A stretch of DNA of 64,000 nt. Source: Bacteroidota bacterium. GTDB lineage: Bacteria > Bacteroidota > Bacteroidia > UKL13-3. The position numbers and the translations under genes were made by a program. The notes beneath the pieces are model-generated. The model was not told where the DNA came from, did no database searches, and saw nothing but the letters and a program-made list of their open reading frames with translations. Where the stretch lies: the NCBI GenBank assembly GCA_040388375.1, contig JAZKBU010000005.1:352395-416394 (forward strand), given 5' to 3'. This document shows, piece by piece, positions 22,140-54,862 of this stretch (position 1 is its first letter; each line of letters starts with the position of its first letter).

Positions 22140-22142
22140 TTA

Positions 22143-25305: not shown

Positions 25306-25311
25306 TGTATT

Positions 25312-26055: not shown

Positions 26056-26061
26056 TTTTAA

Positions 26062-27024: not shown

Positions 27025-27027
27025 AGT

Positions 27028-27987: not shown

Positions 27988-28004
27988 TAATTATTTATTA
28001 TTTT

Positions 28005-31189: not shown

Positions 31190-31192
31190 GTT

Positions 31193-32278
31193 TTAATTGT
31201 TTAAAGCACGTAATAGAATTCTACATACATAATCTATCTCTTCATTTGATAATTTATGATACATAGGAAGACATAAAATTTGCTTTGAAATACTTTCGCT
31301 TACGGGTAAGGTATTTTCACTTTTATAAATTTCAACTGTATTTAATGATGGATAAAAATACCTTCTGGGATTTATTCTATTGGCTTCTAACTCATGTTTA
31401 ACTTTTAGTAAAACACTTTCACTCTCAAAAACAACCGGGTAATAAGCGTAGTTAAAATCAGCTTTACTATTCAATTCTATTTTTTTGAGTTTTGGATTCG
31501 TTAACCATTTGTCGTAATGCAAACTTTGGTTTTTTCGTGAAGCCAGTATTGCTTCTATATCTTGTAAGTTCGCCAACCCCATGGCTGCATGGAACTCTGA
31601 ATTTTTACCATTTATACCAACTGCATCAAAATGCTCGGGTCCGTTGTGTCCAAAATTCCTAAGCAGGGCCATTTCTTTTAACAGCTCAGGGTCGCTTGTA
31701 AATACTGCACCACCCTCTACTGTATGGAATAATTTTGTAGCATGAAAACTGGTAGTAACGATATCGCCAAACTCAAATACTGATTTGCCTTTGTATTTTG
31801 TACCAAAGCAATGGGCAGCATCGTATATAACTTTTAAATTATGTTTTTTAGCTATTTTATCAATTGCATCAATATCGCAAGGATTACCAAAAACGTGGGT
31901 AGCTAAAATAGCACTTGTATTTGGCGTAATGGCATCTTCAATTAATTGTGGGTTTATGTTTAAAGAGTCTTTATCAATATCGACAAATACTGGTTTACAT
32001 CCTTCCCAAACCAAACTACTTACTGTGGCCACATAACTAAATGGAGTTGTAATAATTTCTCCTTTTAATTGTAGTGCTTTTATTGCTATTTGTAATGCAA
32101 TAGTACCATTGTTTATGTAAAGTAAATGAGGTACTTGAAGATATTCTTTTAATTTTAATTCTAACTCATTAACTAATGGTCCATTATTTGTAAGCCATTC
32201 ACGTTGCCAAATACCTTTTAAGTATTCTGTATAAGTTTCTAAGCTAGGTAAATATGGAGTAGTTACATTTATTGCCAT
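31193..32278 (-). CDS. DegT/DnrJ/EryC1/StrS-family sugar aminotransferase (PLP-dependent)
   Basis: 361 aa with a …SFHATKLFHTVEGGAVF… PLP-lysine region and an overall family-wide pattern. Confidence 0.85.
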   Translation of the reverse strand: MAINVTTPYLPSLETYTEYLKGIWQREWLTNNGPLVNELELKLKEYLQVPHLLYINNGTIALQIAIKALQLKGEIITTPFSYVATVSSLVWEGCKPVFVDIDKDSLNINPQLIEDAITPNTSAILATHVFGNPCDIDAIDKIAKKHNLKVIYDAAHCFGTKYKGKSVFEFGDIVTTSFHATKLFHTVEGGAVFTSDPELLKEMALLRNFGHNGPEHFDAVGINGKNSEFHAAMGLANLQDIEAILASRKNQSLHYDKWLTNPKLKKIELNSKADFNYAYYPVVFESESVLLKVKHELEANRINPRRYFYPSLNTVEIYKSENTLPVSESISKQILCLPMYHKLSNEEIDYVCRILLRALNN

Positions 32279-32385
32279 AAGGATATAAAATAGGGTGCAA
32301 TATATCTTATTTCTATAGGAAATAAAGTTTTAATTTTTAATGTATTCGACTACTTTAGACTAATAACACTTTAATTATATGCGCG

Positions 32386-33831
32386 TTATGATTTTTTTAG
32401 CGTAAATCCTTTTGTCAAAATTTTAATGTCGTCAATAACAGCAGGATAAAATTTAAATAAAATAAACACAAAAGATATAATAGCTAAACAAAAACTGATT
32501 CCGATACCTAACAGTTCACCTATAAAAGGAATAAGTAGTATTTTAGAAAGGTAGAGTATAATTAAATAAACAATAGCAATACCTGCAATAGGTAATATAT
32601 CAATAAGTTGATCTTTTATATTATAGCCAGAAACTTTACCTGAAACATACAGGTTAAAAAATACACCTATAAAAGATATTGTCATTATGCCGATAAGCAT
32701 TCCTAAAATACCGAATGATAAACCAATTCCAATTCCAATTACGAGCAATACTTTTTTTATAATCTCTAAGTTTAAAAACTTATCAGCCCGACCTTTGGCC
32801 AATAAAATGTTTATATTTAAAGCACTGATAGGGTAAAGAATGCCTAATATAGAAAAGAGTTGTATGTAAGTTACCATCGGTAACCATTTTTCTCCCAAAA
32901 GTAAATGAATAATTTCATTGGCTAAAACGGCTATTGTGCCCATAGCAGGTATAATAAATAAATTAGCCATGTTAAGGGCTTTTTTATACGTGTTTTTGAG
33001 TCTTTCAAAGTCGTTTTGCGCTTCTGACATAACTGGAAATAAAACCTTTACAAAAGCACTGGTAAAGGTTCCAACCGAAACGTTAATTAATGTTTGTGCA
33101 TAGCTGTACAACCCAAGTATGGAAGCTGAAAAATAGCGACCAATTATCATGGTATCAATACTGCTAAATGCAGTATTGATTATGCTTGAAGCAAAAACTT
33201 TTAACCCAAAACCTAGTAAATTTTTTAGTGAATCTTTACAAATAATAAAGGAAGGTCGCCATTTTTCGTAAAGCCATATCAATCCTACATTTATTACACT
33301 TGCTACTACTTGTTGGGCAACCAATGCCCATACACCAAAATTTAAAAAAGCGAGACTTAAAGATACCAAAGAAGCAACAACAACGGATATGGTTGAAAAT
33401 AATTCCATCCGTTTAAAGTTAAGCTGTTTTGTTAGTATGGCGTTGTGAGTAAGAATTAATGAGTTAAATAAAAAAATAAGCGATAAAGCCCTTATAATAG
33501 GAAGCAAGGCTTCTTCGTGGTAAAATATAACAATAAGTGGTGCGGTAAAATACAGCAATAAACAAATAGCAATACCAAGTAGTATGCTCACCCAAAATAC
33601 CGAAGATAGTTCTCTTTGATTTACTTCTTTTTTCTGAATTAAACTCGAAAATAAGCCTAATTCACCTAATGAAGTAAGTAAGGCAATAATAACAGAAACC
33701 ATGCCTATTAAACCAAACTCTTTAGGCGTAAGTAACCTTGCCAAAGCAATGTTTACCCCAAATTTTATTATTAATTTGGTAAACTGTCCAATTATAGACC
33801 ATGTTCCTGCTTTTACAATTTGTTTTGACAA
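32386..33831 (-). CDS. Wzx-type oligosaccharide flippase (MOP superfamily)
   Basis: 481 aa with about 12-14 TM helices. The N-terminal KAGTWSIIGQF…KFGVNIALARLL segment is typical of polysaccharide biosynthesis flippases. Confidence 0.8.
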   Translation of the reverse strand: MSKQIVKAGTWSIIGQFTKLIIKFGVNIALARLLTPKEFGLIGMVSVIIALLTSLGELGLFSSLIQKKEVNQRELSSVFWVSILLGIAICLLLYFTAPLIVIFYHEEALLPIIRALSLIFLFNSLILTHNAILTKQLNFKRMELFSTISVVVASLVSLSLAFLNFGVWALVAQQVVASVINVGLIWLYEKWRPSFIICKDSLKNLLGFGLKVFASSIINTAFSSIDTMIIGRYFSASILGLYSYAQTLINVSVGTFTSAFVKVLFPVMSEAQNDFERLKNTYKKALNMANLFIIPAMGTIAVLANEIIHLLLGEKWLPMVTYIQLFSILGILYPISALNINILLAKGRADKFLNLEIIKKVLLVIGIGIGLSFGILGMLIGIMTISFIGVFFNLYVSGKVSGYNIKDQLIDILPIAGIAIVYLIILYLSKILLIPFIGELLGIGISFCLAIISFVFILFKFYPAVIDDIKILTKGFTLKKS

Positions 33832-33844
33832 TTTGGTAATACTT

Positions 33845-34909
33845 CTAATTACTATTGATAATAGTTTTTAAATTTTTTGTTATCAGATAAATTGATAATA
33901 AAATGGATGTTATAACGGATCCAATGATAGCAGAAATCAATCGCGATAATTTCTTTTTTTCAAGAGGTAAAGTAGGTTTATCAACCGTTTGAAAAAATGG
34001 AGTTTGGTTATCTAAAGCAAATTTTGCAATCTCTAGGTTTTTAAGAACTTCTGCATACATCAAGCTTAGCATTTCTACATCTCGTTTTGTCCTTTCAACG
34101 TCTACGCGTCCTTGCATTCTAATTACTTTTAAATTTCTATCAAATATACCTGCGCCATAACTTTCTTTTTCGTATAACAATGTTCTTATGGAGTCAGCTC
34201 TAAATTTAATTAGCTGGTAATTTTTTAATTGGCGATGAATACTTTTTGTGGTATAATATTCGGATAAATTTTTAAATAGACTTTCAACGAATAATTTAGC
34301 AAATTTTTCATTTATTGATTTAAAATCAATGGCAATAATTCCAGCACTTTGGATAACAATACCTGTTTTCTTTTTGGTATCTATAGTTAATAATTTATCA
34401 TCAACTATTCGCTTTATAATTAAATCGAGTACTTTATTTTCCTGATATGACAAACTATCAAGGAGGTTATGTTTAAAATAAGTAAATGAATTTAAACTGG
34501 TATCTGATTGAAAAATACTTGATAGCTTATAAATATCTATGAAATGATTAACTAATAATTCTGGTTTATCATTGATAACTACTTTTTCTAATAGCGTATT
34601 TCCAATAAGTTGACGAGAATTGGCTATATATAATAATTTGTCTTCATTTACATTAGTATTTCCTCCAATACCAGCAATACCAGCAATACCAGCTAATGAA
34701 GATAAATTAAATCCTGAAGAACCTTCATTTTCATTTAAAATAAACGAATATTTGGAAATATAAGTTGGCTTTGAAATATGAGCAATGTAAAATCCAATTA
34801 ATCCCCCTAAGAGACTTATTAATATAATAATTAATAGTTTAGTTAAAAGGAACATAATAGAGTTTTTTATAAAACTTATTATGTCAATTAATTCCACTGA
34901 ATTCTTCAT
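33845..34909 (-). CDS. Wzz-like chain-length determinant protein (no kinase domain), paralog 2
   Basis: TM helix near the N-terminus, a periplasmic coiled region and a TM helix at the extreme C-terminus. It contains a GIAGIAGIAGIGG repeat. Confidence 0.7.
   Translation of the reverse strand: MKNSVELIDIISFIKNSIMFLLTKLLIIILISLLGGLIGFYIAHISKPTYISKYSFILNENEGSSGFNLSSLAGIAGIAGIGGNTNVNEDKLLYIANSRQLIGNTLLEKVVINDKPELLVNHFIDIYKLSSIFQSDTSLNSFTYFKHNLLDSLSYQENKVLDLIIKRIVDDKLLTIDTKKKTGIVIQSAGIIAIDFKSINEKFAKLFVESLFKNLSEYYTTKSIHRQLKNYQLIKFRADSIRTLLYEKESYGAGIFDRNLKVIRMQGRVDVERTKRDVEMLSLMYAEVLKNLEIAKFALDNQTPFFQTVDKPTLPLEKKKLSRLISAIIGSVITSILLSIYLITKNLKTIINSN
34665..34697. repeat. in-frame 9-bp tandem repeat (CCAGCAATA x about 3.5) inside the wzz-like gene, encoding (GIA)n
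   Basis: Read directly from the sequence. Confidence 0.8.
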
Positions 34910-34959
34910 TAATTTATATAAATTTAGTAAACCTTTTGTATAGCGACAATAGTAATATT

Positions 34960-36168
34960 TTATATTGAATTTCTGTTAAAATAGTGTTTTGTATCTATGT
35001 AAAACATAAATAAGAAGGTTATAGCGTAATACATTAAATTTGGTTGTAACAAATAATGAATTAAAAATATTAAAAAGAATATAAGCAAGTGATTTTTAAA
35101 TGCTCTTTTGGCTAATAAAAACAATAAATAAAAAGGAATGATTGATAATATTCCATATTGAACTAAAATAAATAATAAGCCATTATGGGGTTCATGGGCA
35201 TTTGTAAATGATATCCACCTAGAAGAAAAATTTAATGCACCCGGACCATAAATAAAATAGTTATCTACACATAAATTTAATCCATCCGTTAAAGAATGTT
35301 TTCTATCCAAGTTACTTTGTAATGACCGCTCATTTTCTTCACTTTTTAAAAGCCGGGCAATAGAAGAACTTGGATTTTCTCGGGCGTAATTAGTAAGTTG
35401 ATCTGAGAATATAACAGCAGAAAATAGAGTAACTATTACCGTTACTCCAATAATAATTGTTTTAAAAAAAGTTATATTTTTTAACAGCAAATAAAAAACA
35501 TAGCTAAACAACATAATTAAGCCTTGCCTTGACCCAGCCAAATCTGTAAGATATAAAGCCAATAAAAAAATAATTACTAATAGGACTTTTTGTAAACCTT
35601 TATTCTTTAAATTTAGCTCATACGATAAAATTAAGAAGTATATACAAATAGCTCCTGAATAAGAATTGGAATCAATTAAAGTACCAGCAATTCGTGTTAA
35701 AACCCTTTTTTCAATATTATCGGAAAGAATAATAGAAAACAAGAGAGGATTGGCATTTTCAAATAACCCTTGGATAGTTAAAATTATGATTGAAAGTAGA
35801 CTTATGTGTATAAACCACTTATTTAATTCTGGTTTTTTATTATTAATGCTAAAGGTCCACGAGAAATAAAAAAAATACAATAACACTCTTATTAAATCGT
35901 TTGCAATGGGAACAGAACCATTAATAAACCAATCAATAAAACATAATGGTATTGAAGTCGTTACAAAAAAAATAGTGTTCCAGCTATTTATAAAGTTAAC
36001 AATCTGGTCTTTGTTAAAATTTAAAAGAAAGAATAACAAGCTAAGCAATAAACAAATGATGATTATGATAGAAGAGCTTAATCCAAATATTCCGGAGAAA
36101 TAATATAAATTATTAATTATAGTTATTCCTATTCCTATATTGATAAATTTCTCTAATTTTCTTAGCAT
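34960..36168 (-). CDS. polytopic membrane protein, O-antigen ligase/Wzy-like
   Basis: 402 aa with at least 10 TM helices and one large loop. It sits between the two wzz-like genes. Confidence 0.6.
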   Translation of the reverse strand: MLRKLEKFINIGIGITIINNLYYFSGIFGLSSSIIIIICLLLSLLFFLLNFNKDQIVNFINSWNTIFFVTTSIPLCFIDWFINGSVPIANDLIRVLLYFFYFSWTFSINNKKPELNKWFIHISLLSIIILTIQGLFENANPLLFSIILSDNIEKRVLTRIAGTLIDSNSYSGAICIYFLILSYELNLKNKGLQKVLLVIIFLLALYLTDLAGSRQGLIMLFSYVFYLLLKNITFFKTIIIGVTVIVTLFSAVIFSDQLTNYARENPSSSIARLLKSEENERSLQSNLDRKHSLTDGLNLCVDNYFIYGPGALNFSSRWISFTNAHEPHNGLLFILVQYGILSIIPFYLLFLLAKRAFKNHLLIFFLIFLIHYLLQPNLMYYAITFLFMFYIDTKHYFNRNSI

Positions 36169-36195
36169 TTTTATCTAGATTGTTTTTTAAGTTAT

Positions 36196-37266
36196 CTAGA
36201 AAACAATTTTTGCTTTAAGGAATAAAACTGTAATAGATATTAAACAAATAAAACTGAACAGAAATGCACCGATAATACTAAATACGATTAGTGATTTCGA
36301 TAATTCTTCAAGGGGAAAAGAGGGTTTATCTATTACTTGAAAAACAGGTTTTTCTTGGTCATAATTAAATTTAGCAATTTCTTTGTTCTTTAATAATTCG
36401 GCATACAGCACATTTAATAATTCAGTTTCTTTTTTTAGTCTTGCTTCGTTTACTTTACCACTAAACCTGATTATTTTATTAGAAATGTCCATCTCATTAG
36501 CAACAGCGACTTCACTTCTTTCCATAATTCTTTTTGTTGAGTCTAATCTTTGGGAAACCAAATCTAAATTAGCCTTTAAGCTTTTTGTTATAATCTGTGT
36601 ATAGAAATCGCTTAAATTAAAATAAATGGCATCGATAAGTCTTTTTGATAAGAGCTCATCTTTTGATTTATAACTAATTAAAATAATACCACTAGAAGAC
36701 TGGCCAACAAAAGAAGAAGTTTTCTTTTTTACAGCATCGCTTTGTAAGTCGTTTGATTTTAAAATTTTTGATATTAAAAAATCCATTATTTTATTCTCTA
36801 CATGGCTTAAGTTATCAATGTTTTTAGAAGTGAAGTGATTGAAATTTTGTAATGAAGTATCTTTTCCGTCCCAATCTTTTTTATAGTCGTTTAGTGCTAT
36901 TAATTTATCGGCAACCGTAATTTTTTCTTCCTCAATAATAGCAAGTAGTGATTGGCCTAATATTTTTTTTGTTGTAATTAAAAACAAAATTCTATCATCA
37001 GATACATTCACACTTGAGCCAGATGCACCTAATTGCCCGGCTAGCGCTGCTATTGGATTTTGACTTATACTTTTTGCATCGTTTATTATAAAGCTTAACT
37101 TAGCTTCATACTTTACAGGGCTTAATTTAACGTATGTAAAGCCAGCAGCTAAACCAATCAATACAGAAATAATTAAATATACTTTATGGTTTAGAATATA
37201 CTTTAAATAATCATTTATATTGTTTATAACATTTTTAAAATTAACAAGTTCTTTATTTTCATCCAT
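36196..37266 (-). CDS. Wzz-like chain-length determinant protein, paralog 1
   Basis: Same topology as 33845..34909, with a colinear C-terminal …VIDKPSFPLEE… box. Confidence 0.7.
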   Translation of the reverse strand: MDENKELVNFKNVINNINDYLKYILNHKVYLIISVLIGLAAGFTYVKLSPVKYEAKLSFIINDAKSISQNPIAALAGQLGASGSSVNVSDDRILFLITTKKILGQSLLAIIEEEKITVADKLIALNDYKKDWDGKDTSLQNFNHFTSKNIDNLSHVENKIMDFLISKILKSNDLQSDAVKKKTSSFVGQSSSGIILISYKSKDELLSKRLIDAIYFNLSDFYTQIITKSLKANLDLVSQRLDSTKRIMERSEVAVANEMDISNKIIRFSGKVNEARLKKETELLNVLYAELLKNKEIAKFNYDQEKPVFQVIDKPSFPLEELSKSLIVFSIIGAFLFSFICLISITVLFLKAKIVF

Positions 37267-37267
37267 A

Positions 37268-39718
37268 CTATTTTACAGTAATACTTCTAACTATCGTAAA
37301 TACTAATACTAGGGTAGTTGTAATAGCCGAAGAAACAGTAACCATTTCCATGGTATTCAATTTTTTGTTTTCTTCTTTTTGTGGAATTACTATTTCTCCC
37401 CCTTGTTTTATTTTAGGATAGAAATTAATAAACATAAATCTTTTAGTGGCTTTAGCTGTACCATTTGCATAAACAACATAAGCTCTTTTTCTCAAGGCGC
37501 GACTTGTAAAACCACCGCTATTTGAAACGTAGTATTTTAATCCTTTTCCTTTCTCGAATTTTAATTTTATTGGGTATAATATTTCCCCACTAACCAATAC
37601 AGTCTGTTTTTCAATCGGTATTTTAATTATATCGCCATCACGTAAAAATAAATCTGATTTAGAGCCTGGGTTTTTTAATATGTAGTTTAAATCAATACCT
37701 ACCAAATCATAATTGGAGCTTTTTTCATCATCAATTGTTTCTGAAATTTCAGTAGTATCTTTTGTTTGCTTTTTTAGTGCTTTTAACTTACTTTCTTTAA
37801 TAAATTCTTCTGTATTAGTTTGTATTTTTGGTCTTAATAATATCGCTCCATCAGGATAAGCAGTTGCAGTAACCCCTCCGCTTCTTTTTATTAAATCAGA
37901 TATACGTTCGTTGTTTTTTTCAAGACTATACGTACCTGGGTATAATACTTCACCATCAATCGATACATTTTTTTGAGCAACATATCCCGGCAGCATAAAT
38001 ACGGTTACATTATCAAAAGGTAGGAGCTCAAATTTTAGACTAGGATTGTCCTTTAAATCTTTGTCTAAGTCGAATTGTTTAATAACAGAAATTTCACTAT
38101 TAGCTTTTGTTCTGTCAACATCAAATTTTCTTCTGGCTACTTCAATTCTTTTTATAGATGCTGCTTCTTTAAACCCACCAGCAGCTATAATAAGGTCTTC
38201 AATTCTCATGTTTTCAGCATAAGGAAATACACCAGGTTTTATAACTAAACCATTGATAGTAACATTGTATGATTCTTTTAACTCTTGTTTAGAAGCAATT
38301 TGAATGTTGTCTTCTCGTTGTAAAACTATATCTTCTGCTTTACCTTGCATAGCATCCGCTAAATTGATTGAAAGCATGGTCAGTGTATTATCGCTTTGCA
38401 GTCTGTATATAATTGCTCTTGTTTGAAAAGCATCTTCTCGTAAGCCTTCTGCCTTTTTTATTAATTGTAAAATAGTTAAGCCTTTCTCTAAGGCGTAAGT
38501 ACCGGGTCTAAATACAGCGCCATTAATTTGCACCCTGTTTTCAAATCTGTCTAAAAGCATATCCACGGAATATACATCACCACTTTTGGGATTGAATAGG
38601 CTAAATAATTCTTTTTGAATATCAGCTACACTTTTTTGTTTTGATGTATTACGTGTTACTTTAATTCGTTCAGTAAATGCATTATCCGTAAATCCTCCGG
38701 CAAAGCCAATAACATCATTCAAATTTTCATTTTTAGTTACTTCATATAAACCAGGTCTTTTTACTTCACCGGTTAATTCTATTCTGTTTTCATATGCATT
38801 TACTTTTATAACGTCTTGATCCTGCAAACGTATATTGCCTTTTGCCTCACCTTTAGTTAAAAAATCATATATATCAAGAATGGCTATTGTTTTATTGTTT
38901 CTGACCACTTTAATATTACGCATAGACCCATTTTTATTGGGCCCGCCAGAGGCATATAAAGCGTTAAACACAGTAGCTAGTGAGGGTAATGTGTAAGTGC
39001 CTGGGAGATTGACTTCTCCAATTATTAATACTTTAATGCTTCTAATGTTTCCCAAAGTAATACTTACACTGGTTTCACCGGTATTAATTCTATCGTATAC
39101 TTTGGTTAAATTCTGAGTTATTTTTTTTCTGGCTTGCTCAATCGTTAATCCTGATACCTGCACAGGGCCTACATAAGGAATTCTTATATTACCGTCAGGA
39201 GAAATCTTTAAGTTAAAAGTTTCTTCTGAAAAACCATAAATATCAATGATTAATTCATCGTCAGGACCTAGCTGATAGTTAGTAGGCGTTGCAATTTTTA
39301 AATTGGGTTCGAAAGTAAGATTCTTATTGTTAAATAATTCGGCACCAAACACTTTTGGCCTGATCTCTGAAAATACTAAATCTTCATTATTGATTTCAGC
39401 ATTATTGTTGTCGGTTTTACCTCTACTGCCTTGATTATTATTGTTATTGGTAGGAGTTGAATTACCTAAATTTTCTATCCTTGTTTTTAACTTGGCAAAT
39501 TCGCTACTGGACATTTTACGTTTAGTAGCTTCCTGCTCCAATTGATTCATGGATAATCCTCTAGATTGTGCTTTATTCCAAAAGTCAGCAATTTGATCAT
39601 CGCTTAATTCATTGACTTTTACTTTTGAAAGATTTTGAAAATTTAGCACCTGTCCAATAGCGCTAAATGATAAAAAGATAATTAAAAATGTACTTAAGCA
39701 AATTTTTATTTTACTCAT
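37268..39718 (-). CDS. polysaccharide export outer-membrane protein (Wza-like, multiple SLBB domains)
   Basis: 816 aa. Signal peptide, an N-terminal polysaccharide-export motif region, repeated SLBB-like G-x-V-x-x-P-G-x-Y units and a C-terminal TM helix. Confidence 0.8.
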   Translation of the reverse strand: MSKIKICLSTFLIIFLSFSAIGQVLNFQNLSKVKVNELSDDQIADFWNKAQSRGLSMNQLEQEATKRKMSSSEFAKLKTRIENLGNSTPTNNNNNQGSRGKTDNNNAEINNEDLVFSEIRPKVFGAELFNNKNLTFEPNLKIATPTNYQLGPDDELIIDIYGFSEETFNLKISPDGNIRIPYVGPVQVSGLTIEQARKKITQNLTKVYDRINTGETSVSITLGNIRSIKVLIIGEVNLPGTYTLPSLATVFNALYASGGPNKNGSMRNIKVVRNNKTIAILDIYDFLTKGEAKGNIRLQDQDVIKVNAYENRIELTGEVKRPGLYEVTKNENLNDVIGFAGGFTDNAFTERIKVTRNTSKQKSVADIQKELFSLFNPKSGDVYSVDMLLDRFENRVQINGAVFRPGTYALEKGLTILQLIKKAEGLREDAFQTRAIIYRLQSDNTLTMLSINLADAMQGKAEDIVLQREDNIQIASKQELKESYNVTINGLVIKPGVFPYAENMRIEDLIIAAGGFKEAASIKRIEVARRKFDVDRTKANSEISVIKQFDLDKDLKDNPSLKFELLPFDNVTVFMLPGYVAQKNVSIDGEVLYPGTYSLEKNNERISDLIKRSGGVTATAYPDGAILLRPKIQTNTEEFIKESKLKALKKQTKDTTEISETIDDEKSSNYDLVGIDLNYILKNPGSKSDLFLRDGDIIKIPIEKQTVLVSGEILYPIKLKFEKGKGLKYYVSNSGGFTSRALRKRAYVVYANGTAKATKRFMFINFYPKIKQGGEIVIPQKEENKKLNTMEMVTVSSAITTTLVLVFTIVRSITVK

Positions 39719-44408: not shown

Positions 44409-45365
44409 ATGTCAGAACAATTAGAACATATACATTGCCTTATAATAGGTAGTGGTCCTGCTGGATATACAGCGGCTATTTATGCAGCGCGTGCCGATTT
44501 AAAACCAGTTATGTATACAGGCCCTCAACCTGGTGGGCAGTTAACCATTACTAACGATGTTGAAAATTATCCAGGTTATCCTACAGGTATTATGGGACCG
44601 GAAATGATGGAAGATTTCAGAAAACAGGCGGAACGATTTGGAACAGATATTCGTTACGGAATGGTAACTAAGGTAAATTTTGATGGTATTCCACCTTATA
44701 AAATCACGATTGATGAAACCAAAGAAGTACTGGCCGATACGGTAATTATTTCGACTGGTGCCAGTGCTAAATGGCTAGGCATTGAAAGCGAAACCAAACT
44801 AAACGGACATGGTGTTTCGGCTTGTGCTGTTTGCGATGGTTTCTTTTTCAGAGGTAAAGAGGTAGCTATTGTGGGTGCCGGTGATACTGCTTGCGAAGAA
44901 GCAAGTTACCTGTCAAAAATATGCAGTAAAGTATATATGATAGTGAGGAAAGAAGAGTTCAGAGCATCTAAAGTGATGCAGCACAGGGTAGAAAACACTC
45001 CGAATATTGAAATTTTATTTAACTCTGAAACAGATGAAATTTTGGGTGACCACAAAGTAGAGGGGGTAAGAGTAAAAAATAATAAAACAGGCGAATTAAG
45101 AACAATAGAGCTAGGTGGTTTTTTTGTGGCCATTGGCCATAAACCCAATACTGAAATATTTGCACCGTACCTTGAAATGGACGAAACAGGTTACTTAATT
45201 ACGGTACCAGGTACCAGTAAAACAATAGTGGAAGGTGTATTTGCTTGTGGCGATGCGCAGGATAAAATTTATCGACAAGCGGTAACGGCTGCTGGTAGCG
45301 GTTGTATGGCTGCACTGGATGCAGAACGTTATTTATCTGCTAAACAATTTGGCATGCACGCTTAA
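44409..45365 (+). CDS. trxB: thioredoxin-disulfide reductase
   Basis: Motifs GSGPAGYTAAIYAAR, redox-active CAVCDG and a second GAGDTACEEA dinucleotide site. Confidence 0.9.
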   Translation: MSEQLEHIHCLIIGSGPAGYTAAIYAARADLKPVMYTGPQPGGQLTITNDVENYPGYPTGIMGPEMMEDFRKQAERFGTDIRYGMVTKVNFDGIPPYKITIDETKEVLADTVIISTGASAKWLGIESETKLNGHGVSACAVCDGFFFRGKEVAIVGAGDTACEEASYLSKICSKVYMIVRKEEFRASKVMQHRVENTPNIEILFNSETDEILGDHKVEGVRVKNNKTGELRTIELGGFFVAIGHKPNTEIFAPYLEMDETGYLITVPGTSKTIVEGVFACGDAQDKIYRQAVTAAGSGCMAALDAERYLSAKQFGMHA

Positions 45366-46853: not shown

Positions 46854-47216
46854 ATGAACATTTCAGTTGATTATGCGGCAATATTTATCCAGTTTTTGGT
46901 AGGTTTTGGCTTTGTGGCTACTACTATGGTGGCTACGCATTACCTTGGCCCTAAGCGTAAAACAAGTGATAAGCTGGAGATTTTCGAATGTGGAATCGAT
47001 AGCCAGGGAAATGCTCGCTTACCTTTTTCTATAAAATATTTTTTAACAGCTATATTGTTTGTAATGTTCGATGTGGAAGTTATTTTTATGTACCCATGGG
47101 CTGTTAATTTTAAAGAATTAGGCACTCACGGTTTTGTTGAAATGCTTCTTTTTATTGGAACACTGTTAATTGGCTTTGCCTATATTATTAAGCGTGGTGC
47201 TTTAAAATGGGAATAA
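46854..47216 (+). CDS. nuoA: NADH-quinone oxidoreductase subunit A
   Basis: 120 aa, 3 TM helices, ND3-like. Confidence 0.9.
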   Translation: MNISVDYAAIFIQFLVGFGFVATTMVATHYLGPKRKTSDKLEIFECGIDSQGNARLPFSIKYFLTAILFVMFDVEVIFMYPWAVNFKELGTHGFVEMLLFIGTLLIGFAYIIKRGALKWE

Positions 47217-47280
47217 TCAGATTTTTCTTCCCCGGTTAAATCTATAAAATTAAAAACGCTCAATCGATAAATAACTTAGA

Positions 47281-47823
47281 ATGTCAGATATAAAAATTTC
47301 ACCAACTCCACCAAGTATCGAAGGACCAGGCTTTCAAGCTACCTCGTTAGATAAAATAATTGGATTGGCCAGAGCAAATTCACTTTGGCCTTTGCCTTTT
47401 GCTACTTCGTGTTGTGGTATTGAGTTTATGGCTACCATGGGTTCAAATTACGATTTGGCTCGTTTTGGTTCAGAACGTATCAGCTTTTCACCTCGCCAAG
47501 CCGATGTTTTATTGGTAGCCGGAACAATTGCTAAAAAAATGGGTCCGGTTTTAAAACAAGTATATTTACAAATGGCTGAACCACGTTGGGTAATAGCCAT
47601 TGGTGCTTGTGCATCAAGCGGTGGTATATTTGATACCTATTCAGTATTACAAGGAATAGATAAAGTAATTCCTGTAGATGTATATGTGCCGGGTTGTCCT
47701 CCGCGCCCTGAGCAAATAATAGATGGTATTTTAAAATTACAGGAAATAGTTAAAAACGAATCGCTTCGCAGAAGAAATTCAGATGAGTATAAAGCGCTTT
47801 TAGGAAGTTACGGAATACAATAA
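47281..47823 (+). CDS. nuoB: NADH-quinone oxidoreductase subunit B
   Basis: CCGIEF…GACASSGG…GCPPRP cysteine motifs for cluster N2. Confidence 0.95.
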   Translation: MSDIKISPTPPSIEGPGFQATSLDKIIGLARANSLWPLPFATSCCGIEFMATMGSNYDLARFGSERISFSPRQADVLLVAGTIAKKMGPVLKQVYLQMAEPRWVIAIGACASSGGIFDTYSVLQGIDKVIPVDVYVPGCPPRPEQIIDGILKLQEIVKNESLRRRNSDEYKALLGSYGIQ

Positions 47824-48329
47824 TGGTAAACATAGATAATCAATATATTTTAGCTGAAATTACCAATCAATTTGGCGATAAAGTGTATAGCTCATACGAG
47901 CCATATGGTTTGTTAACCATTGAGTTTGATAAAAACAATATCAAAGATTTACTTCAGTTTTTATACAATCACAAAGAATTGCAAATGCAGTTTTTAACTG
48001 ATGTATGTGGTATTCATTACCCTGAAGTAAAAGGCAAGGAAATAGGAGCAGTTTATCATATACACAGCTTAGTAAACAATATACGTTTACGTGTGAAATG
48101 TTATATGCCTGTTGAAAATCCTAGTATAGATTCAGCTACGTTTTTATTTAGCTCGGCTAACTGGCAAGAACGTGAAACCTTTGACTTTTATGGCATAAAT
48201 TTTATCGGGCATCCTAATTTAAGACGCATTTTAAATGTGGACGAAATGGACTATTTCCCAATGAGAAAAGAGTATCCATTAGAAGACGGAACAAGAACAG
48301 ATAAAAACGATAGTTATTTTGGACGATAA
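47823..48329 (+). CDS. nuoC: NADH-quinone oxidoreductase subunit C
   Basis: 30-kDa subunit pattern (…ERETFDFYGI…HPNLRRIL). Confidence 0.9.
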   Translation: MVNIDNQYILAEITNQFGDKVYSSYEPYGLLTIEFDKNNIKDLLQFLYNHKELQMQFLTDVCGIHYPEVKGKEIGAVYHIHSLVNNIRLRVKCYMPVENPSIDSATFLFSSANWQERETFDFYGINFIGHPNLRRILNVDEMDYFPMRKEYPLEDGTRTDKNDSYFGR

Positions 48330-48360
48330 ATCCTTTGGGTTTTAAATGATATAAAATTAA

Positions 48361-49563
48361 ATGATTGAATCATTAGAATTAAATACAAAAAGCGAGAAAG
48401 AGGATTATAATATTTTAAATCTCGGTCCTACACATCCTGCTACACATGGTGTGTTTCAAAATATATTGAAAATGGATGGTGAAATTATTCATGATGCCAC
48501 TTCAACCATAGGATATATACACCGTGCTTTTGAAAAAATTGCAGAACATCGCCCATATTATCAAATAACACCATTAACTGACAGGTTAAACTATTGTTCA
48601 TCACCCATTAACAATATGGGTTGGCACATGACAGTAGAAAAATTATTGGGTGTAGAAATACCAAAGCGTGTTGATTACATGCGTGTAATTATTATGGAAT
48701 TAGCGCGTATTGCCGACCATTTGGTTTGTAATGCAGTTATTGGAGTAGATACTGGTGCGTTAACAGGATTTACTTACATGTTCCAATGGCGTGAAAAAAT
48801 ATACGACATTTACGAACAAGTTTGTGGTGCACGCTTAACAACCAATATTGGCAGAATAGGTGGATTAGAAAGAGATTTTACACCGGAATGTATTAGACGT
48901 ATACGTGAATTTTTAACCGATTTTCCTAAATACTTTGATGAGTTTTCAGGCTTGCTTGAACGCAACAGAATATTTATGGACAGGATTATAAATGTAGGGC
49001 CAATAAGCGCTGAACGTGCTTTAAACTATGGCTTTACTGGTCCTAATTTACGAGCAGCAGGCGTTGATTACGATGTACGCGTAATGAATCCATATAGTTC
49101 ATATCAAGATTTTGATTTTATGATTCCTTTGGGAACACAAGGTGATACCTATGATAGATTTATGGTTCGTCAGCATGAAATCAGAGAAAGTTTAAAAATT
49201 ATAACACAAGCTTTAGAAAATTTACCGGAAGGTAAATTTTTTGCGGATGTGCCTGATTTCTTTTTGCCCCCAAAAGAAGAAGTGTATAATAATATGGAAG
49301 CTTTAATTTTCCACTTTAAAATAGTAATGGGCGAAGCAACAGTTCCTGTTGGCGAAGTGTATCACTCGGTAGAAGGTGGAAATGGCGAATTAGGATTTTA
49401 CATGGTAAGTGATGGCGGACGTGCTCCTTATCGTTTGCATTTCCGCAGACCATGTTTTATATTTTACCAAGCTTACCCGGAAATGATAAAAGGTTCGATG
49501 CTTTCAGATGCTATTTTAACCATGAGTAGCATGAATGTAATTGCTGGCGAATTGGACGCATAA
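48361..49563 (+). CDS. nuoD: NADH-quinone oxidoreductase subunit D
   Basis: 49-kDa subunit, with LNLGPTHPATHGVF at the N-terminus. Confidence 0.95.
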   Translation: MIESLELNTKSEKEDYNILNLGPTHPATHGVFQNILKMDGEIIHDATSTIGYIHRAFEKIAEHRPYYQITPLTDRLNYCSSPINNMGWHMTVEKLLGVEIPKRVDYMRVIIMELARIADHLVCNAVIGVDTGALTGFTYMFQWREKIYDIYEQVCGARLTTNIGRIGGLERDFTPECIRRIREFLTDFPKYFDEFSGLLERNRIFMDRIINVGPISAERALNYGFTGPNLRAAGVDYDVRVMNPYSSYQDFDFMIPLGTQGDTYDRFMVRQHEIRESLKIITQALENLPEGKFFADVPDFFLPPKEEVYNNMEALIFHFKIVMGEATVPVGEVYHSVEGGNGELGFYMVSDGGRAPYRLHFRRPCFIFYQAYPEMIKGSMLSDAILTMSSMNVIAGELDA

Positions 49564-49566
49564 ATA

Positions 49567-49698
49567 ATTATGAATTATGAATTATGAATTTTGAATGGAC
49601 TTTTATTCAATCTTTTTTGTTCATATTATTATATAAAAACAACTTAATACGGATACTAGTTTTGGATAATCCAACATTCAAAATCTGACATTCAAAAT
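49567..49698. repeat. repeat-rich nuoD-nuoE spacer: (ATTATGAA)x3 tandem unit, plus an inverted repeat ATTTTGAATG … CATTCAAAAT (the latter twice)
   Basis: Read directly from the sequence. The 10-11-bp arms at 49588-49597 and at 49675-49684 / 49689-49698 are separated by about 77 bp. Confidence 0.6.
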
Positions 49699-49706
49699 TT
49701 AAAAAG

Positions 49707-50243
49707 ATGAGTGAAATAAAATTTAATGATGAAACACTTGCCATGGTGCAAAGTATTATCAAACGTTATCCCGAAGGCAAGCAGAAATCGGCATTACTAC
49801 CACTTTTGCATTTAGCACAAGCTGAATTTAATGGTTGGTTAAGTTCACCTGTAATGGATTATGTGGCATCGTTATTAAATATTAAACCTGTTGAGGTATA
49901 TGAAGTGGCTTCGTTTTACAGTATGTACAACTTAAAGCCGGTAGGAAAATGCTTGCTTGAGGTTTGCAGAACAAGTTCATGTTGGTTACGTGGTGCTAAT
50001 GAAATAGTGGAGCATATTGAAAATAAATTGGGTATTAAAGATGGAGAAACCACTGCCGATGGTAAGTTTACTTTAAAAACAGTTGAATGTTTGGGTAGTT
50101 GCGGAACAGCGCCAATGCTTCAATTGGGTGCAGACTTTCATGAAAACCTGACATTTGAAAAAGTTGATGCTTTAATTAGCGAATGGAGCAATAAAGCTGA
50201 GCATAGTAAATATTTAGACATTGATACATTTAGAAAAAACTAA
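49707..50243 (+). CDS. nuoE: NADH-quinone oxidoreductase subunit E
   Basis: 24-kDa subunit with 2Fe-2S cysteines (C…C…CLGSCGTAP). Confidence 0.9.
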   Translation: MSEIKFNDETLAMVQSIIKRYPEGKQKSALLPLLHLAQAEFNGWLSSPVMDYVASLLNIKPVEVYEVASFYSMYNLKPVGKCLLEVCRTSSCWLRGANEIVEHIENKLGIKDGETTADGKFTLKTVECLGSCGTAPMLQLGADFHENLTFEKVDALISEWSNKAEHSKYLDIDTFRKN

Positions 50244-50275
50244 ACGTAATTATTAATTCTGAGAGCTAAATTACA

Positions 50276-51619
50276 ATGAGTAAAAAAATATTATTAGAAC
50301 ATATAAACGTACCGGGAATTAATACTTTAGCCGTATACCGTGAAAAAGGTGGTTATGCTTCAGTTGAAAAAGCTTTGAAAACAATGGCACCGGATGCTAT
50401 TGTAGAAGAGGTTAAAAAATCAGGTTTACGCGGACGTGGTGGAGCTGGTTTTCCAACAGGCATGAAATGGAGTTTTTTAGCTAAACCAGAAGGTGTAGCC
50501 AGATACTTAGTTTGTAATGCTGATGAAAGCGAACCGGGAACTTTTAAAGACAGGTATTTAATGGAAAAAATTCCTCATTTATTAATTGAGGGAATGATTA
50601 CTTCAAGCTTTGCTTTAGGAGCTAATAGTTCATACATTTATGTACGTGGGGAGTATTTTTATATTATTAAAATATTGGAAAAAGCCATTGCCGATGCTTA
50701 TGAAGCAGGTTGGTTAGGCAAAAATATTTTAGGAACTGGTTATGATTTGGATTTATATGTGCAAGCGGGTGCTGGTGCTTATATATGTGGAGAAGAAACA
50801 GCTTTATTAGAAAGCTTGGAAGGTAAACGTGGTAACCCAAGAATTAAGCCTCCATTCCCTGCTATAGCCGGTTTGTACGGTTGCCCAACAGTGGTAAACA
50901 ATGTAGAAACCATTGCAGCCGTTGTACCTATTGTAAACAATGGTGGCGATTGGTATGCAGGCATTGGTATTGGAAAATCAACAGGAACTAAATTAATTTC
51001 AGCATCAGGACATATTAATAAACCCGGTGTGTACGAAATTGAAATGGGCATTACCGTAGAAGATTTTATATATAGTGAAGAGTATTGCGGTGGTATAAAA
51101 AATGGTAAAAAACTAAAAGCAGTAGTTGCCGGAGGCTCATCAGTGCCTATTTTACCTGCCGAAATGATATTAACTACTGCCAGTGGCGAAAAACGCTTAA
51201 TGAGCTACGAAAGTTTAGCTGACGGTGGTTTTGCAACAGGAACCATGTTAGGTTCAGGCGGATTTATAGTAATGGATGAAACCACAAGTATTGTACAAAA
51301 CTTACATACGTTTGCTCGTTTCTATCACCATGAAAGCTGCGGACAATGCAGCCCATGTCGTGAAGGGACAGGTTGGATGGAAAAAATATTGCATAAAATA
51401 TTAGATGGACATGGTACTATACAAGACGTAGATTTACTTTGGGAAATTCAACGTAAAATAGAAGGAAATACCATTTGTCCGTTAGGTGATGCAGCAGCTT
51501 GGCCGGTGGCAAGTGCTATTCGTCATTTCAGACACGAGTTTGAAGAGTATGTGAAAAATCCTGCTGTAATTAAGGAAGTAAAGCATTACCATAACATGCA
51601 TAATTTAGCAACAGCATAA
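50276..51619 (+). CDS. nuoF: NADH-quinone oxidoreductase subunit F
   Basis: 51-kDa subunit with [17 protein letters not shown] motifs and a C-terminal [12 protein letters not shown] 4Fe-4S motif. Confidence 0.95.
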
Positions 51620-51655
51620 ATATAAAGTCTGATTAACGACTAAAAGAAATTATAA

Positions 51656-52639
51656 ATGGCAAAAGTAACAATAGACGGACAAACAATAGAAGTAGCAGAC
51701 GGAACAACCATTTTGCAGGCTGCACGTATGATAGGGCCAGAAGTGGCTCCGCCAACTATGTGCTATTATAGTAAACTAAAAACCAGTGGTGGTTATTGCC
51801 GCACTTGTTTGGTTGAAGTAAGCAAAGGTTCAGAAAAAGATCCTCGTCCTATGCCTAAATTAGTAGCAAGTTGTCGTACTACTATTATGGATGGTATGGA
51901 AGTAAAAAATGTTACTTCCGAAAAAGTAATAGATGCACGTAAAGGAGTAGTAGAATTTTTATTGTTAAACCATCCTTTAGATTGCCCTATTTGTGACCAA
52001 GCAGGAGAGTGCCAGTTACAAGATTTAGGTTACGAACACGGCTCTGCTAAAACGCGTACCGATTTTGAACGTAGAACGTTTGATAAAATAAATATTGGTA
52101 ATAAAATCCAGTTACACATGACCCGTTGTATACTTTGCTACCGTTGTGTAAAAGTAGCCGAGCAAATTACCGATGGACGTGTGCATGGAGTAATGAATCG
52201 TGGCGATGCAAGTGAAATATCAACGTATATTGAACAAGCTATTGAAAACGATTTTAGCGGAAACGTAATTGATGTTTGTCCCGTTGGTGCATTAACTGAT
52301 AAAACATTCCGATTTAAAAGCCGTGTTTGGTTTACCAAACCGGTAGATGCACATAGAGATTGCGATAAATGCTGTGGCAAAGTGGTAATTTGGTATAAAG
52401 GTGAAGACGTTTTACGTGTTACCGGTCGTAAAGACCAATGGGGCGAAGTAGAAGAGTTTATTTGCAATACTTGCCGTTTTGATAAAAAGAGTACCAGTGA
52501 CTGGACTATTGAAGCTCCTACAGCTATTAGCCATCAATCAGTTATTTCAGCTAATCATTACGAGAAAATGGTAAGACCAAAAGAATTAACATTAAATAAT
52601 ATAAAACCAATTGCTTTAACGGAGGGAGATAACAAATAA
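51656..52639 (+). CDS. nuoG: NADH-quinone oxidoreductase subunit G (short form)
   Basis: 327 aa with N-terminal 2Fe-2S and 4Fe-4S cysteine clusters (C…C…C, CPICDQAGEC, CILCYRCV). It lacks the C-terminal molybdopterin-like domain. Confidence 0.85.
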   Translation: MAKVTIDGQTIEVADGTTILQAARMIGPEVAPPTMCYYSKLKTSGGYCRTCLVEVSKGSEKDPRPMPKLVASCRTTIMDGMEVKNVTSEKVIDARKGVVEFLLLNHPLDCPICDQAGECQLQDLGYEHGSAKTRTDFERRTFDKINIGNKIQLHMTRCILCYRCVKVAEQITDGRVHGVMNRGDASEISTYIEQAIENDFSGNVIDVCPVGALTDKTFRFKSRVWFTKPVDAHRDCDKCCGKVVIWYKGEDVLRVTGRKDQWGEVEEFICNTCRFDKKSTSDWTIEAPTAISHQSVISANHYEKMVRPKELTLNNIKPIALTEGDNK

Positions 52640-53700
52640 TGTTTTTATTATTTTTTAAAATAGCACTTATAGTCATTTTATTTTTAATAAGCCTAGGTGT
52701 TGCTGCTTATGCTACTTATGGTGAACGTAAGGTGGCTGCATTTATGCAAGATAGAATCGGGCCAGATCGTGCAGGACCATTTGGTCTATTACAACCCATT
52801 GCCGATGGCGTAAAAATGTTTATGAAAGAGGAAATTATTCCAAATGTTTCCGATAAGCTATTGTTTATTTTAGGTCCTTGCATTTTTATGATTACCGCTT
52901 TAATGACCAGTGCCGTTATTCCTTGGGGAACTGCAATGGAATTTAACGGTGTAAAATATGCATTGCAGGTAGCCGACATCAATATTGGAATTTTATACGT
53001 TTTTGGTGTAGTAAGTTTAGGTGTGTATGGTATTATGATTGGTGGCTGGGCGTCAAACAATAAGTTTGCTTTATTAGGTGCTGTGCGTGCTTCAAGTCAA
53101 ATGATCAGTTATGAATTGGCTATGGGTATGTCGCTTATTGCCATTATCATGATGAGTGGTTCATTAAGTTTAACGGATATTGTAACAGCACAAGGTCAAG
53201 GAAACCTTTGGGGATTTATTCCAGTAAGTGGTTTAAACTGGAACATATTTTACCAACCCTTAGGATTCATTATTTTTCTTATTTGTGCTTTTGCAGAATG
53301 TAACAGAACACCTTTTGATTTACCGGAATGTGAAACAGAATTAGTAGGTGGTTACCATACAGAATACTCATCAATGAAACTAGGTTTATACTTATTTGCC
53401 GAGTATATCAATATGTTTATTTCTGGTGCTATTATTTCTTGCTTATATTTTGGTGGTTATAACTTTCCAGGCTTAGCTTATTTAAGTTCGGTTTTAGACC
53501 CTAATATAGTGGCTGTAATTAGTTTTGGTGCCTTGTTTACAAAAGCTATTTTCTTTGTATTCTTCTTTATGTGGATTCGTTGGACAATTCCGCGTTTCCG
53601 TTACGATCAACTAATGAAATTAGGCTGGCAAGTGTTATTGCCATTATCAATATTAAATGTATTATTAACCGGTGGCGGATTAACCTTTTTTAGCAAATAA
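52639..53700 (+). CDS. nuoH: NADH-quinone oxidoreductase subunit H
   Basis: ND1-like with 8 TM helices. Its start overlaps the nuoG stop. Confidence 0.95.
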   Translation: MFLLFFKIALIVILFLISLGVAAYATYGERKVAAFMQDRIGPDRAGPFGLLQPIADGVKMFMKEEIIPNVSDKLLFILGPCIFMITALMTSAVIPWGTAMEFNGVKYALQVADINIGILYVFGVVSLGVYGIMIGGWASNNKFALLGAVRASSQMISYELAMGMSLIAIIMMSGSLSLTDIVTAQGQGNLWGFIPVSGLNWNIFYQPLGFIIFLICAFAECNRTPFDLPECETELVGGYHTEYSSMKLGLYLFAEYINMFISGAIISCLYFGGYNFPGLAYLSSVLDPNIVAVISFGALFTKAIFFVFFFMWIRWTIPRFRYDQLMKLGWQVLLPLSILNVLLTGGGLTFFSK

Positions 53701-53713
53701 AACAGAACAAAAC

Positions 53714-54262
53714 ATGGAAAATACAGTAAAAATTAATGATATAATTGATTATAAATTATTAACCGAACGCAAAGTTTTTTTATGGGGGCAGGTAGATGAT
53801 GATTCTGCTAAACACGTAATTGATAGACTACTGTATTTGGATATGATTGAACCTGGAAAGGATATCACTTTAATTATAAATAGTCCCGGTGGGTATGTTA
53901 CCTCTGGTTTTACTATTTATGACACCATAAAATCTATTAGCTCACCGGTGTCAACCGTTTGTATGGGTTTGGCAGCTTCTATGGGCTCAATATTGTTATC
54001 AGTTGGAACAAAAGGAAAACGTTATATATACCCTAATGCCAAAGTTATGATACACCAGCCAAGTGGTGGGGCTCAGGGGCAATCGTCAGACATACAAATA
54101 CAGGCACAGGAAATTTTAAAAACAAAAAGATTAGGTGCCCAGATTTTAGCTGATAACTGTGGTCAAACAATAGAAAAAGTACTAGCTGATTTTGACCGTG
54201 ATTATTGGATGGATGCAGACGAATCATTGGCATACGGAATAGTAGACGGTATAATAAAATAA
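53714..54262 (+). CDS. ClpP-family serine protease paralog (N-terminally short) embedded between nuoH and nuoI
   Basis: 182 aa. It is colinear with canonical ClpP from the ER(K/V)(V/I)FL box onward. Motifs: INSPGG…IYD; the Ser box GLAASMGSILL; the His box VMIHQPSGGAQGQSSDIQI; the Asp box DFDRDYWMDADESLAYGIVDGII. The gaps to nuoH and nuoI are 13 bp and 7 bp. Confidence 0.8.
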   Translation: MENTVKINDIIDYKLLTERKVFLWGQVDDDSAKHVIDRLLYLDMIEPGKDITLIINSPGGYVTSGFTIYDTIKSISSPVSTVCMGLAASMGSILLSVGTKGKRYIYPNAKVMIHQPSGGAQGQSSDIQIQAQEILKTKRLGAQILADNCGQTIEKVLADFDRDYWMDADESLAYGIVDGIIK

Positions 54263-54269
54263 AAGTAAA

Positions 54270-54803
54270 ATGCAATTAACCAATAGATCAAAAGTAGTAA
54301 GCAATAAGGAAATGAGCTTTAAAGAAAAGCTTTATATTCCTGCTATATTATCGGGTATGGGCGTAACTTTTAAACACATGTTTAAAAAGAGCGTTTCATT
54401 GCGTTATCCTGAAGTTACCAGGGAGTTTAGCCCGGTTTACAGGGGCTTGCACGTTTTAAAACGCGATACTCAAGGACGCGAAAACTGTACAGCTTGTGGT
54501 TTATGTGCTGTTGCATGTCCTGCAGAAGCTATTACCATGGATGCAGCAGAGCGAAAAAAAGGCGAAGAGCATTTATACCGCGAAGAAAAATATGCAGCGA
54601 AATACGAAATAAATATGCTGCGTTGTATTTTCTGTGGTTTGTGTGAAGAAGCCTGCCCTAAAGATGCCATTTATTTAACTGACAGAATTGTTGAATCGGA
54701 TTATAAACGTAACAGTTTTATATATGGTAAAGATGTGCTGGTTGAAAAAATGGAGCAACGAATAGATATTACCAAACGTAAAAAAAGCTATAAAATTGAT
54801 TAG
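54270..54803 (+). CDS. nuoI: NADH-quinone oxidoreductase subunit I
   Basis: Two 4Fe-4S ferredoxin motifs, CTACGLCAVACP and CIFCGLCEEACP. Confidence 0.9.
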   Translation: MQLTNRSKVVSNKEMSFKEKLYIPAILSGMGVTFKHMFKKSVSLRYPEVTREFSPVYRGLHVLKRDTQGRENCTACGLCAVACPAEAITMDAAERKKGEEHLYREEKYAAKYEINMLRCIFCGLCEEACPKDAIYLTDRIVESDYKRNSFIYGKDVLVEKMEQRIDITKRKKSYKID

Positions 54804-54821
54804 GATCAGAGATGGTTTTAT

Positions 54822-54854
54822 AAAAAAAGCGACTAAATTTTAGTCGCTTTTTTT
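54822..54854. terminator. bidirectional rho-independent terminator between nuoI and convergent coaD
   Basis: A7 - GCGACT-aaatttt-AGTCGC - T7. Confidence 0.75.
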
Positions 54855-54862
54855 ATGACATA

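Follow-up and report, generated by a model that had tools for sequence, protein, structure and literature searches.

A short ClpP paralog without axial loops encoded between nuoH and nuoI in one freshwater clade of Bacteroidota

In a 64,000-nucleotide stretch of a Bacteroidota genome (the window), an open reading frame of 182 codons between the complex I genes nuoH and nuoI encodes an uncharacterised accessory ClpP isoform in a new operon context. The explanation that we favour, with a probability of about 0.5, is that the gene codes for a second ClpP isoform with catalytic competence. It would be an unexceptional ortholog within a short ClpP family, would not dock ClpX itself and would have been relocated into the nuo operon of a single clade. 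A few pathogens and actinomycetes are known to have second ClpP isoforms, which change the assembly and the specificity of the protease. A dedicated role in complex I turnover, which had been proposed when the gene was first noticed, is judged unlikely from the sequence comparisons given below.

Results

Location of the gene

The ORF lies in a co-oriented string of genes in the order nuoA, B, C, D, E, F, G, nuoH, the 182-aa ORF and nuoI (Table 1). It is separated by 13 nt from the nuoH stop codon and by 7 nt from the nuoI start codon, so the tight same-strand packing reported in the initial annotation holds, and there is no in-frame start upstream of 53714. The gap between nuoD and nuoE (49564–49706, 143 nt) is the largest within the otherwise tight string. 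The nuoG product (51656–52639) is a form of 327 aa with 2Fe-2S, 4Fe-4S and Fer4_Nqo3 domains and without the molybdopterin-like C-terminal domain; such short NuoG proteins (321–327 aa) are common to the relatives. About 1.5 kb upstream of nuoA there is a thioredoxin reductase-like gene (44409–45365). On the minus strand, 21099–39718 holds a long co-oriented cluster for polysaccharide biosynthesis and export, with a Poly_export/SLBB protein, a Wzx-type flippase, a Wzy_C-like protein, a GT4 glycosyltransferase and an epimerase, which appears ordinary.

Table 1. Positions in the window of the short clpP gene, its functional residues and its surroundings
Feature	Position	Strand	Basis
nuoA–nuoG, 5′ part of the co-oriented string	46854..52639	+	ORFs; Pfam families of the same genes in locus L008; NuoG domains
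nuoH, upstream neighbour	52639..53700	+	PF00146, E=5e-121; NF004741, 351 bits (cut-off 305)
Short ClpP paralog gene, 'FLWG' second-isoform family	53714..54262	+	ORF, 182 aa; PF00574, E=1e-69
Shortened N-terminus MENTVKI, without the 'PxV/IIEx...GER' axial hairpin segment	53714..53734	+	Family alignment (references E. coli and canonical Bacteroidota ClpP); DSSP of the model
Ile54 codon, H-pocket tyrosine position (mature E. coli Y62, S. aureus Y63)	53873..53875	+	Alignments
Catalytic Ser89 codon (TCT)	53978..53980	+	Gapless alignment to S. aureus ClpP Ser98
Catalytic His114 codon (CAC)	54053..54055	+	Aligned to S. aureus His123
Catalytic Asp163 codon (GAT)	54200..54202	+	Aligned to S. aureus Asp172
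nuoI, downstream neighbour	54270..54803	+	TIGR01971, 133.4 bits (cut-off 113)
A/T-flanked hairpin between convergent nuoI and coaD	54818..54858	.	ΔG −22.7 kcal/mol, z = −7.4; 0/200 shuffles as stable

Family assignment, triad and fold

The protein matches PF00574, the CLP_protease profile of the ClpP family (MEROPS S14), with 234.5 bits (cut-off 20.2) over profile positions 9–180 of 182, bearing out that the ORF is a complete ClpP-family gene, and it also scores above the cut-off of the broad PRK12553 subfamily model (236.7 bits against 228). It stays below the cut-offs of the ClpP equivalog TIGR00493 (217.2 against 308.6) and of NF011091, the Bacteroidota-type ClpP equivalog (209.6 against 361). 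Scores for the phage prohead protease family (NF045542, 89 against 120) and for SppA (TIGR00706, 23.5 against 155) are below their cut-offs as well. Overall, its identity to ordinary ClpPs is about 50% (42–54%).

For residue-level comparison, 118 close relatives were aligned with 235 ClpPs of the canonical Bacteroidota type and with the E. coli enzyme, the sequence of the last being verified against PDB 3mt6. All the motifs quoted in the initial annotation were recovered, i.e. INSPGG at residues 55–60, GLAASMGS at 85–92, MIHQPSGGAQGQ at 112–123 and DFDRDYWMD at 159–167, and the catalytic triad is intact in a gapless alignment to the S. aureus enzyme. Ser89, His114 and Asp163 are invariant in 118/118 aligned family members. 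Arg162, which directly precedes the catalytic Asp and is the counterpart of the oligomerisation-sensor Arg, is likewise invariant in the family alignment. The ClpP fold of the protein is predicted with confidence: the AlphaFold2 single-chain model has a pLDDT of 94.4, and Foldseek superimposes it on F. tularensis ClpP (3p2l) with a TM of 0.95 and an rmsd of 1.3 Å. In this monomer model the handle helix adopts an extended, active-like conformation. Because dN to the relatives is low (0.10–0.14) while dS is saturated, the short clpP gene is under strong purifying selection.

Missing axial loops and an altered docking cleft

DSSP of the model assigns residues 1–6 to coil and residues 7–17 to helix A. 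Since six residues precede helix A, compared with 16 in mature E. coli and S. aureus ClpP, about 10 N-terminal residues are missing. The initial annotation was therefore right that the axial loops are absent and the N-terminus is shortened, but its figure of about 14 residues was too large by this measure. Relative to canonical Bacteroidota ClpP (226 aa), the window protein is shorter by about 44 N-terminal residues. The 'P-x-I/V-I/V-E' axial hairpin segment is absent across the short family in the alignment of 118 members. The axial loops are required for recognition by ClpX (PMC9823225).

The ATPase-docking cleft is changed at two key positions. The H-pocket tyrosine governs the N-terminal gate and is a contact site for activators; when it rotates or is mutated to Ala, the pore opens (PMC8182300). 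At this position the short family has Ile in 92, Phe in 16, Tyr in seven and Val in two members (n = 118), so that Ile or Phe is found in 108/118, compared with Tyr in 235/235 canonical Bacteroidota ClpPs. The position of E. coli F82 is occupied by Ser74 in the window protein and by Ser, Ala, Thr or Gly in 117/118 family members, compared with Phe in 233/235 canonical proteins. With the equivalog models failed, the hairpin missing, the Y62 and F82 positions changed to Ile and Ser, and a location that is not beside tig or clpX, the window gene does not encode the housekeeping ClpP.

A probable extra paralog beside canonical clpP

The genomes of relatives show how the short gene stands to canonical clpP. 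On one scaffold of Maribacter thermophilus (LDAS01000001.1, 4.05 Mb), a short ClpP with 77% identity to the window protein (L013) coexists with a canonical tig-clpP-clpX locus whose ClpP has 226 aa (L171); this canonical locus was fetched with a flavobacterial-type ClpP probe, which served only to retrieve real sequences. At five Chitinophagaceae-type loci (L087, 116–2918; L102; L106; L107; L108), tig, canonical clpP and an FLWG-type clpP stand in tandem. The tandem protein belongs to a sister subgroup: it has 212 aa and an acidic N-terminal extension, is 58–66% identical, and is encoded immediately after canonical clpP. Such a clpP1–clpP2-like tandem operon appears to be undescribed for Bacteroidota.

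In a neighbour-joining tree computed without bootstrap, the short subgroup groups with the tandem one in a single clade apart from the canonical Bacteroidota ClpPs, and the nuo-embedded copies cluster, yet are not strictly monophyletic. The 64-kb window contains no second ClpP gene, and a search with a Chitinophagaceae canonical ClpP returned Chitinophagaceae-type clusters only. Three indirect lines, namely coexistence in Maribacter, the tandem sister loci and the separate clade in the tree, indicate that the window ClpP is probably an extra paralog. Together with the missed equivalog cut-offs, the presence of an ortholog and a tig-clpP-clpX locus on one Maribacter scaffold agrees with the earlier view of the gene as a paralog type.

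Distribution and contexts of the short family

Members of the short family have 181–187 aa and the signature 'ERKVFLWGQVDDDSAKH', and are widespread in Bacteroidota. A GTDB scan yielded at least 592 confirmed relatives, the family being present in more than 590 GTDB species, and a protein identical to the window ClpP is encoded in the Bacteroidota MAG GCA_040384145.1 (contig JAWVHD010000004.1). Among the best 80 of the at least 592 GTDB loci, 78 lack a nuo neighbour, and the two closest (81–82% identity) have the order nuoH-clpP-nuoI. Most of the 78 come from cultured Flavobacteriaceae (Maribacter, Flagellimonas, Dokdonia, Aequorivita, Psychroserpens, Arenibacter), and others from Mangrovibacterium, Prolixibacteraceae, Chitinophagales and two Sericytochromatia-type MAGs. 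Orthologs at 65–77% identity that lack a nuo neighbour occur in Flavobacteriaceae, Lentimicrobium, Prolixibacteraceae and others.

The surroundings of the gene vary. Flavobacterial genomes show two recurrent arrangements, one with dnaE, thioredoxin, clpP and DUF58, the other with an ECF sigma factor, an MscS-like protein, clpP and a FAD monooxygenase; in Lentimicrobium the gene directly follows a MoxR ATPase gene, and in another MAG it follows a Zip transporter gene. No neighbour shared across lineages was found among the loci compared, and in most genomes the short clpP is unlinked to canonical clpP or clpX. A partnership with MoxR or DUF58 was rejected, as MoxR adjoins the gene in Lentimicrobium alone and DUF58 does so in a single flavobacterial arrangement. 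Directly upstream of nuoA, a thioredoxin gene and a DUF6952 gene are present in UKL13-3 (L001, 1918–2474) and in L176 (673–1245). A conserved link between thioredoxin and clpP was also rejected, since the thioredoxin upstream of UKL13-3 nuoA is only 31% identical to the flavobacterial TrxA encoded beside clpP.

Candidatus Blackallbacteria and Sericytochromatia MAGs also encode short ClpPs that share about 70% identity with the window protein (L082, 570–1079; L083, 6001–6510), which suggests inter-phylum transfer or bin contamination. A metagenome scan with the window protein returned mostly canonical ClpPs of about 54% identity and added only L091 and four tandem loci, and clusters represented at 50% identity gave no further information, as only very few of them hold the whole short family.

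The nuoH-clpP-nuoI clade

The order nuoH-clpP-nuoI was found in 11/11 checked lineages whose ClpP is at least 80% identical to that of the window. These are the window MAG (L008–L010), 'Bacteroidetes bacterium UKL13-3' (L001), L011, L012, L091, L177 (93% identity), L173 (87%), L178 (85%), L174 (83%), L175 (81%) and L176 (80%). It is absent from all checked relatives at 77% identity or below, namely the 78 GTDB loci, L004 and L007. The nuo location is a trait of one freshwater clade, the relatives of UKL13-3; the insert at the nuoH-nuoI junction is kept there but is not universal. Within the clade, NuoH is only about 70–72% identical to the window NuoH, so the arrangement is old and stable there. 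Its conservation across the 11 lineages implies co-expression with complex I in this clade and makes selection for co-expression possible; it suggests that the nuo position is selected, which a pure 'passenger' view leaves unexplained. Only three alignment positions separate the nuo-embedded ClpPs from the other family members, arguing that the protein was not remodelled on moving into the operon.

The gaps flanking clpP measure 4–20 nt in most lineages and about 60–130 nt in UKL13-3, L011, L012 and L174, and no terminator was found before nuoI. The hairpin downstream of nuoI (Table 1) is likely a bidirectional terminator that closes the nuoA-H-clpP-nuoI unit, judging from its predicted stability. 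No nuoJ–N genes are present in the 64-kb window. In all clade lineages except the window MAG and L177 the operon runs on through nuoJ–N, and L177 has the same break after nuoI as the window. Because the string stops at nuoI in both, complex I genes lie in at least two loci in this genus-level lineage. The initial annotation had placed the gene inside the complex I operon, which is accurate for most relatives, where it is internal to nuoA–N; in the window the operon stops right after nuoI. A sigma-70 promoter scan, with a consensus unsuited to Bacteroidota, gave 36 hits against 37.5 expected by chance.

Other genes are inserted into these operons. A PD-(D/E)XK (PDDEXK_3) gene lies between nuoE and nuoF in UKL13-3 (L001, 5966–6388) and in L174 (4025–4417). 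Between nuoF and nuoG there are two MNT/HepT (nucleotidyltransferase/HepT) toxin–antitoxin pairs in L175 (3968–5580) and small ORFs of 105–111 aa in L173 (5651–5986) and L178 (5598–5915). These inserts between nuoE and nuoF and between nuoF and nuoG are sporadic, clearly unrelated passengers.

Discussion

Candidate functions

According to the favoured explanation, a heptameric ring of the short ClpP would be unable to dock ClpX alone and would stack on a ring of canonical ClpP, giving a heterotetradecamer by analogy with P. aeruginosa ClpP2 and C. trachomatis ClpP1, and the mixed particle would differ in cleavage specificity or assembly. The tandem linkage of the sister subgroup to canonical clpP fits such a joint function. 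In the UKL13-3-like clade the gene would have been relocated into the nuo operon, where it would be co-transcribed and probably translationally coupled with the complex I genes; the level of the short ClpP would thus follow respiratory gene expression, while the protein itself would not have been re-tooled for complex I. Three observations speak against a heterocomplex: the short clpP lies apart from canonical clpP in most genomes, the window protein does not have the C-terminal extension that occludes the clefts of PaClpP2, and by sequence it is no closer to PaClpP2 than to ordinary ClpPs.

The extended, active-like handle of the model suggests that the short ClpP might act alone. It could then be a stand-alone, gate-less peptidase that forms homo-oligomers with a permanently open pore, breaks down peptides and unfolded chains with no AAA+ partner and, in this clade, is made alongside complex I. 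The missing hairpin and the replacement of the pore-controlling tyrosine by Ile in most members (role of the tyrosine: PMC8182300) would fit an open pore, the full conservation of the triad and of the Arg sensor would fit an active enzyme, and as a rule the gene lies away from clpP and clpX. However, the known loop-less isoforms, PaClpP2 and ctClpP1, are inactive alone (PMC9823225, PMC12451819), unregulated open ClpP is harmful in other bacteria, this being the mode of action of ADEP (PMC8182300), and the tandem arrangement of the sister subgroup points to joint rather than independent function. This alternative, which the initial annotation also raised, is the main rival to the favoured explanation, though on balance we consider it the less likely of the two.

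The initial annotation had proposed a dedicated protease for quality control of complex I, acting in the turnover or assembly of its subunits much as mitochondrial CLPXP acts on the N-module. The nuoH-nuoI position conserved in 11 lineages, the very tight gene spacing and the mitochondrial precedent (PMC7118099) are consistent with this proposal, but the distribution of the family is not: 78 of the best 80 GTDB loci, including orthologs at 65–77% identity, have no nuo neighbour. Because the family usually sits elsewhere, the nuo location is no proof of action on complex I. Moreover, just three positions set the nuo-embedded copies apart, the same operons carry unrelated passengers such as the PD-(D/E)XK and toxin–antitoxin genes, and the mitochondrial process needs CLPX, for which the short isoform has no docking features. 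The striking complex I claim has gene position as its sole basis, and on these comparisons a dedicated role seems improbable. In a more specific form of the idea, a loop-less ring would have been recruited in the UKL13-3-like clade to work without ClpX or with another partner, clearing damaged or unassembled subunits of the peripheral arm, with a stoichiometry set by translational coupling between nuoH and nuoI; this, too, we hold to be doubtful, and slightly more so. Were a link to complex I real, mitochondrial N-module salvage would have its first counterpart in bacteria; the present evidence makes that unlikely.

That the gene is instead the sole clpP of its genome, a housekeeping ClpP moved away from tig and clpX, is highly improbable: there is no other ClpP within the 64-kb window, but the protein fails the ClpP equivalogs including the Bacteroidota-type NF011091, has neither the loops nor the cleft tyrosine needed for function with ClpX or ClpA, clusters with the paralog family apart from the canonical Bacteroidota ClpPs (neighbour joining, no bootstrap), and has orthologs that coexist with canonical clpP, as in M. 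thermophilus.

Significance

Among open-access texts, we found none that reports a clpP within a nuo operon or that deals with a second ClpP from Bacteroidota, in agreement with the initial annotation, to which no description of the arrangement was known. A large and strongly conserved family of second ClpP isoforms, apparently unstudied, is present in Bacteroidota; its members lack the gating and docking loops and have an altered cleft. The family brings the question of heterocomplexes into culturable Flavobacteriaceae such as Maribacter, Dokdonia and Flagellimonas, and the nuo-embedded clade is a natural setting in which to ask if co-expression with complex I is functionally meaningful.

Comparison with known systems

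The window protein has the same fold (TM 0.95), triad, Arg sensor and handle region as canonical ClpP, defined by TIGR00493 and NF011091. The two differ in gene location, as the window gene is not beside tig or clpX and the canonical arrangement is that seen in the Maribacter locus L171.

In Mycobacterium and Streptomyces, clpP1 and clpP2 form tandem operons, and the isoforms assemble into mixed tetradecamers that bind the ATPases through one of their two rings only. The sister subgroup of 212 aa, encoded directly after canonical clpP in the tig-clpP-clpP loci, resembles these systems, whereas the gene in the window, like most of the short subgroup, is not linked to clpP.

Mitochondrial CLPXP turns over the N-module of complex I in a CLPX-dependent manner and with a canonical CLPP (PMC7118099). 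In both cases a ClpP-family protease is linked to complex I; there the link is a biochemical finding, whereas here it is one of gene position only and concerns an isoform without ClpX-docking features.

The closest parallels in behaviour may be PaClpP2 and ctClpP1, which lack the hairpin and do not bind ClpX; their clefts are less hydrophobic or occluded, and they act in heterocomplexes, a behaviour that is established in the case of P. aeruginosa ClpP2 and has been proposed in that of C. trachomatis ClpP1 (PMC9823225, PMC12451819). Several features set the window ClpP apart from them. It shows no specific sequence kinship with PaClpP2, whose structure 7M1L is outside its 60 best PDB matches, and it has neither a cleft-occluding C-terminal extension nor a mini-helix. 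Its N-terminus is simply shorter, whereas theirs is a divergent segment of normal length, and its location in a respiratory operon has no counterpart. What the three share is a gene away from clpX, an intact Ser-His-Asp triad, the lack of the outward N-terminal β-hairpin, and altered, less hydrophobic docking clefts; like PaClpP2 and ctClpP1, the window protein probably also stands beside a canonical isoform as an extra ClpP, as its ortholog in M. thermophilus does. This resemblance is one of functional analogy, not of demonstrated kinship.
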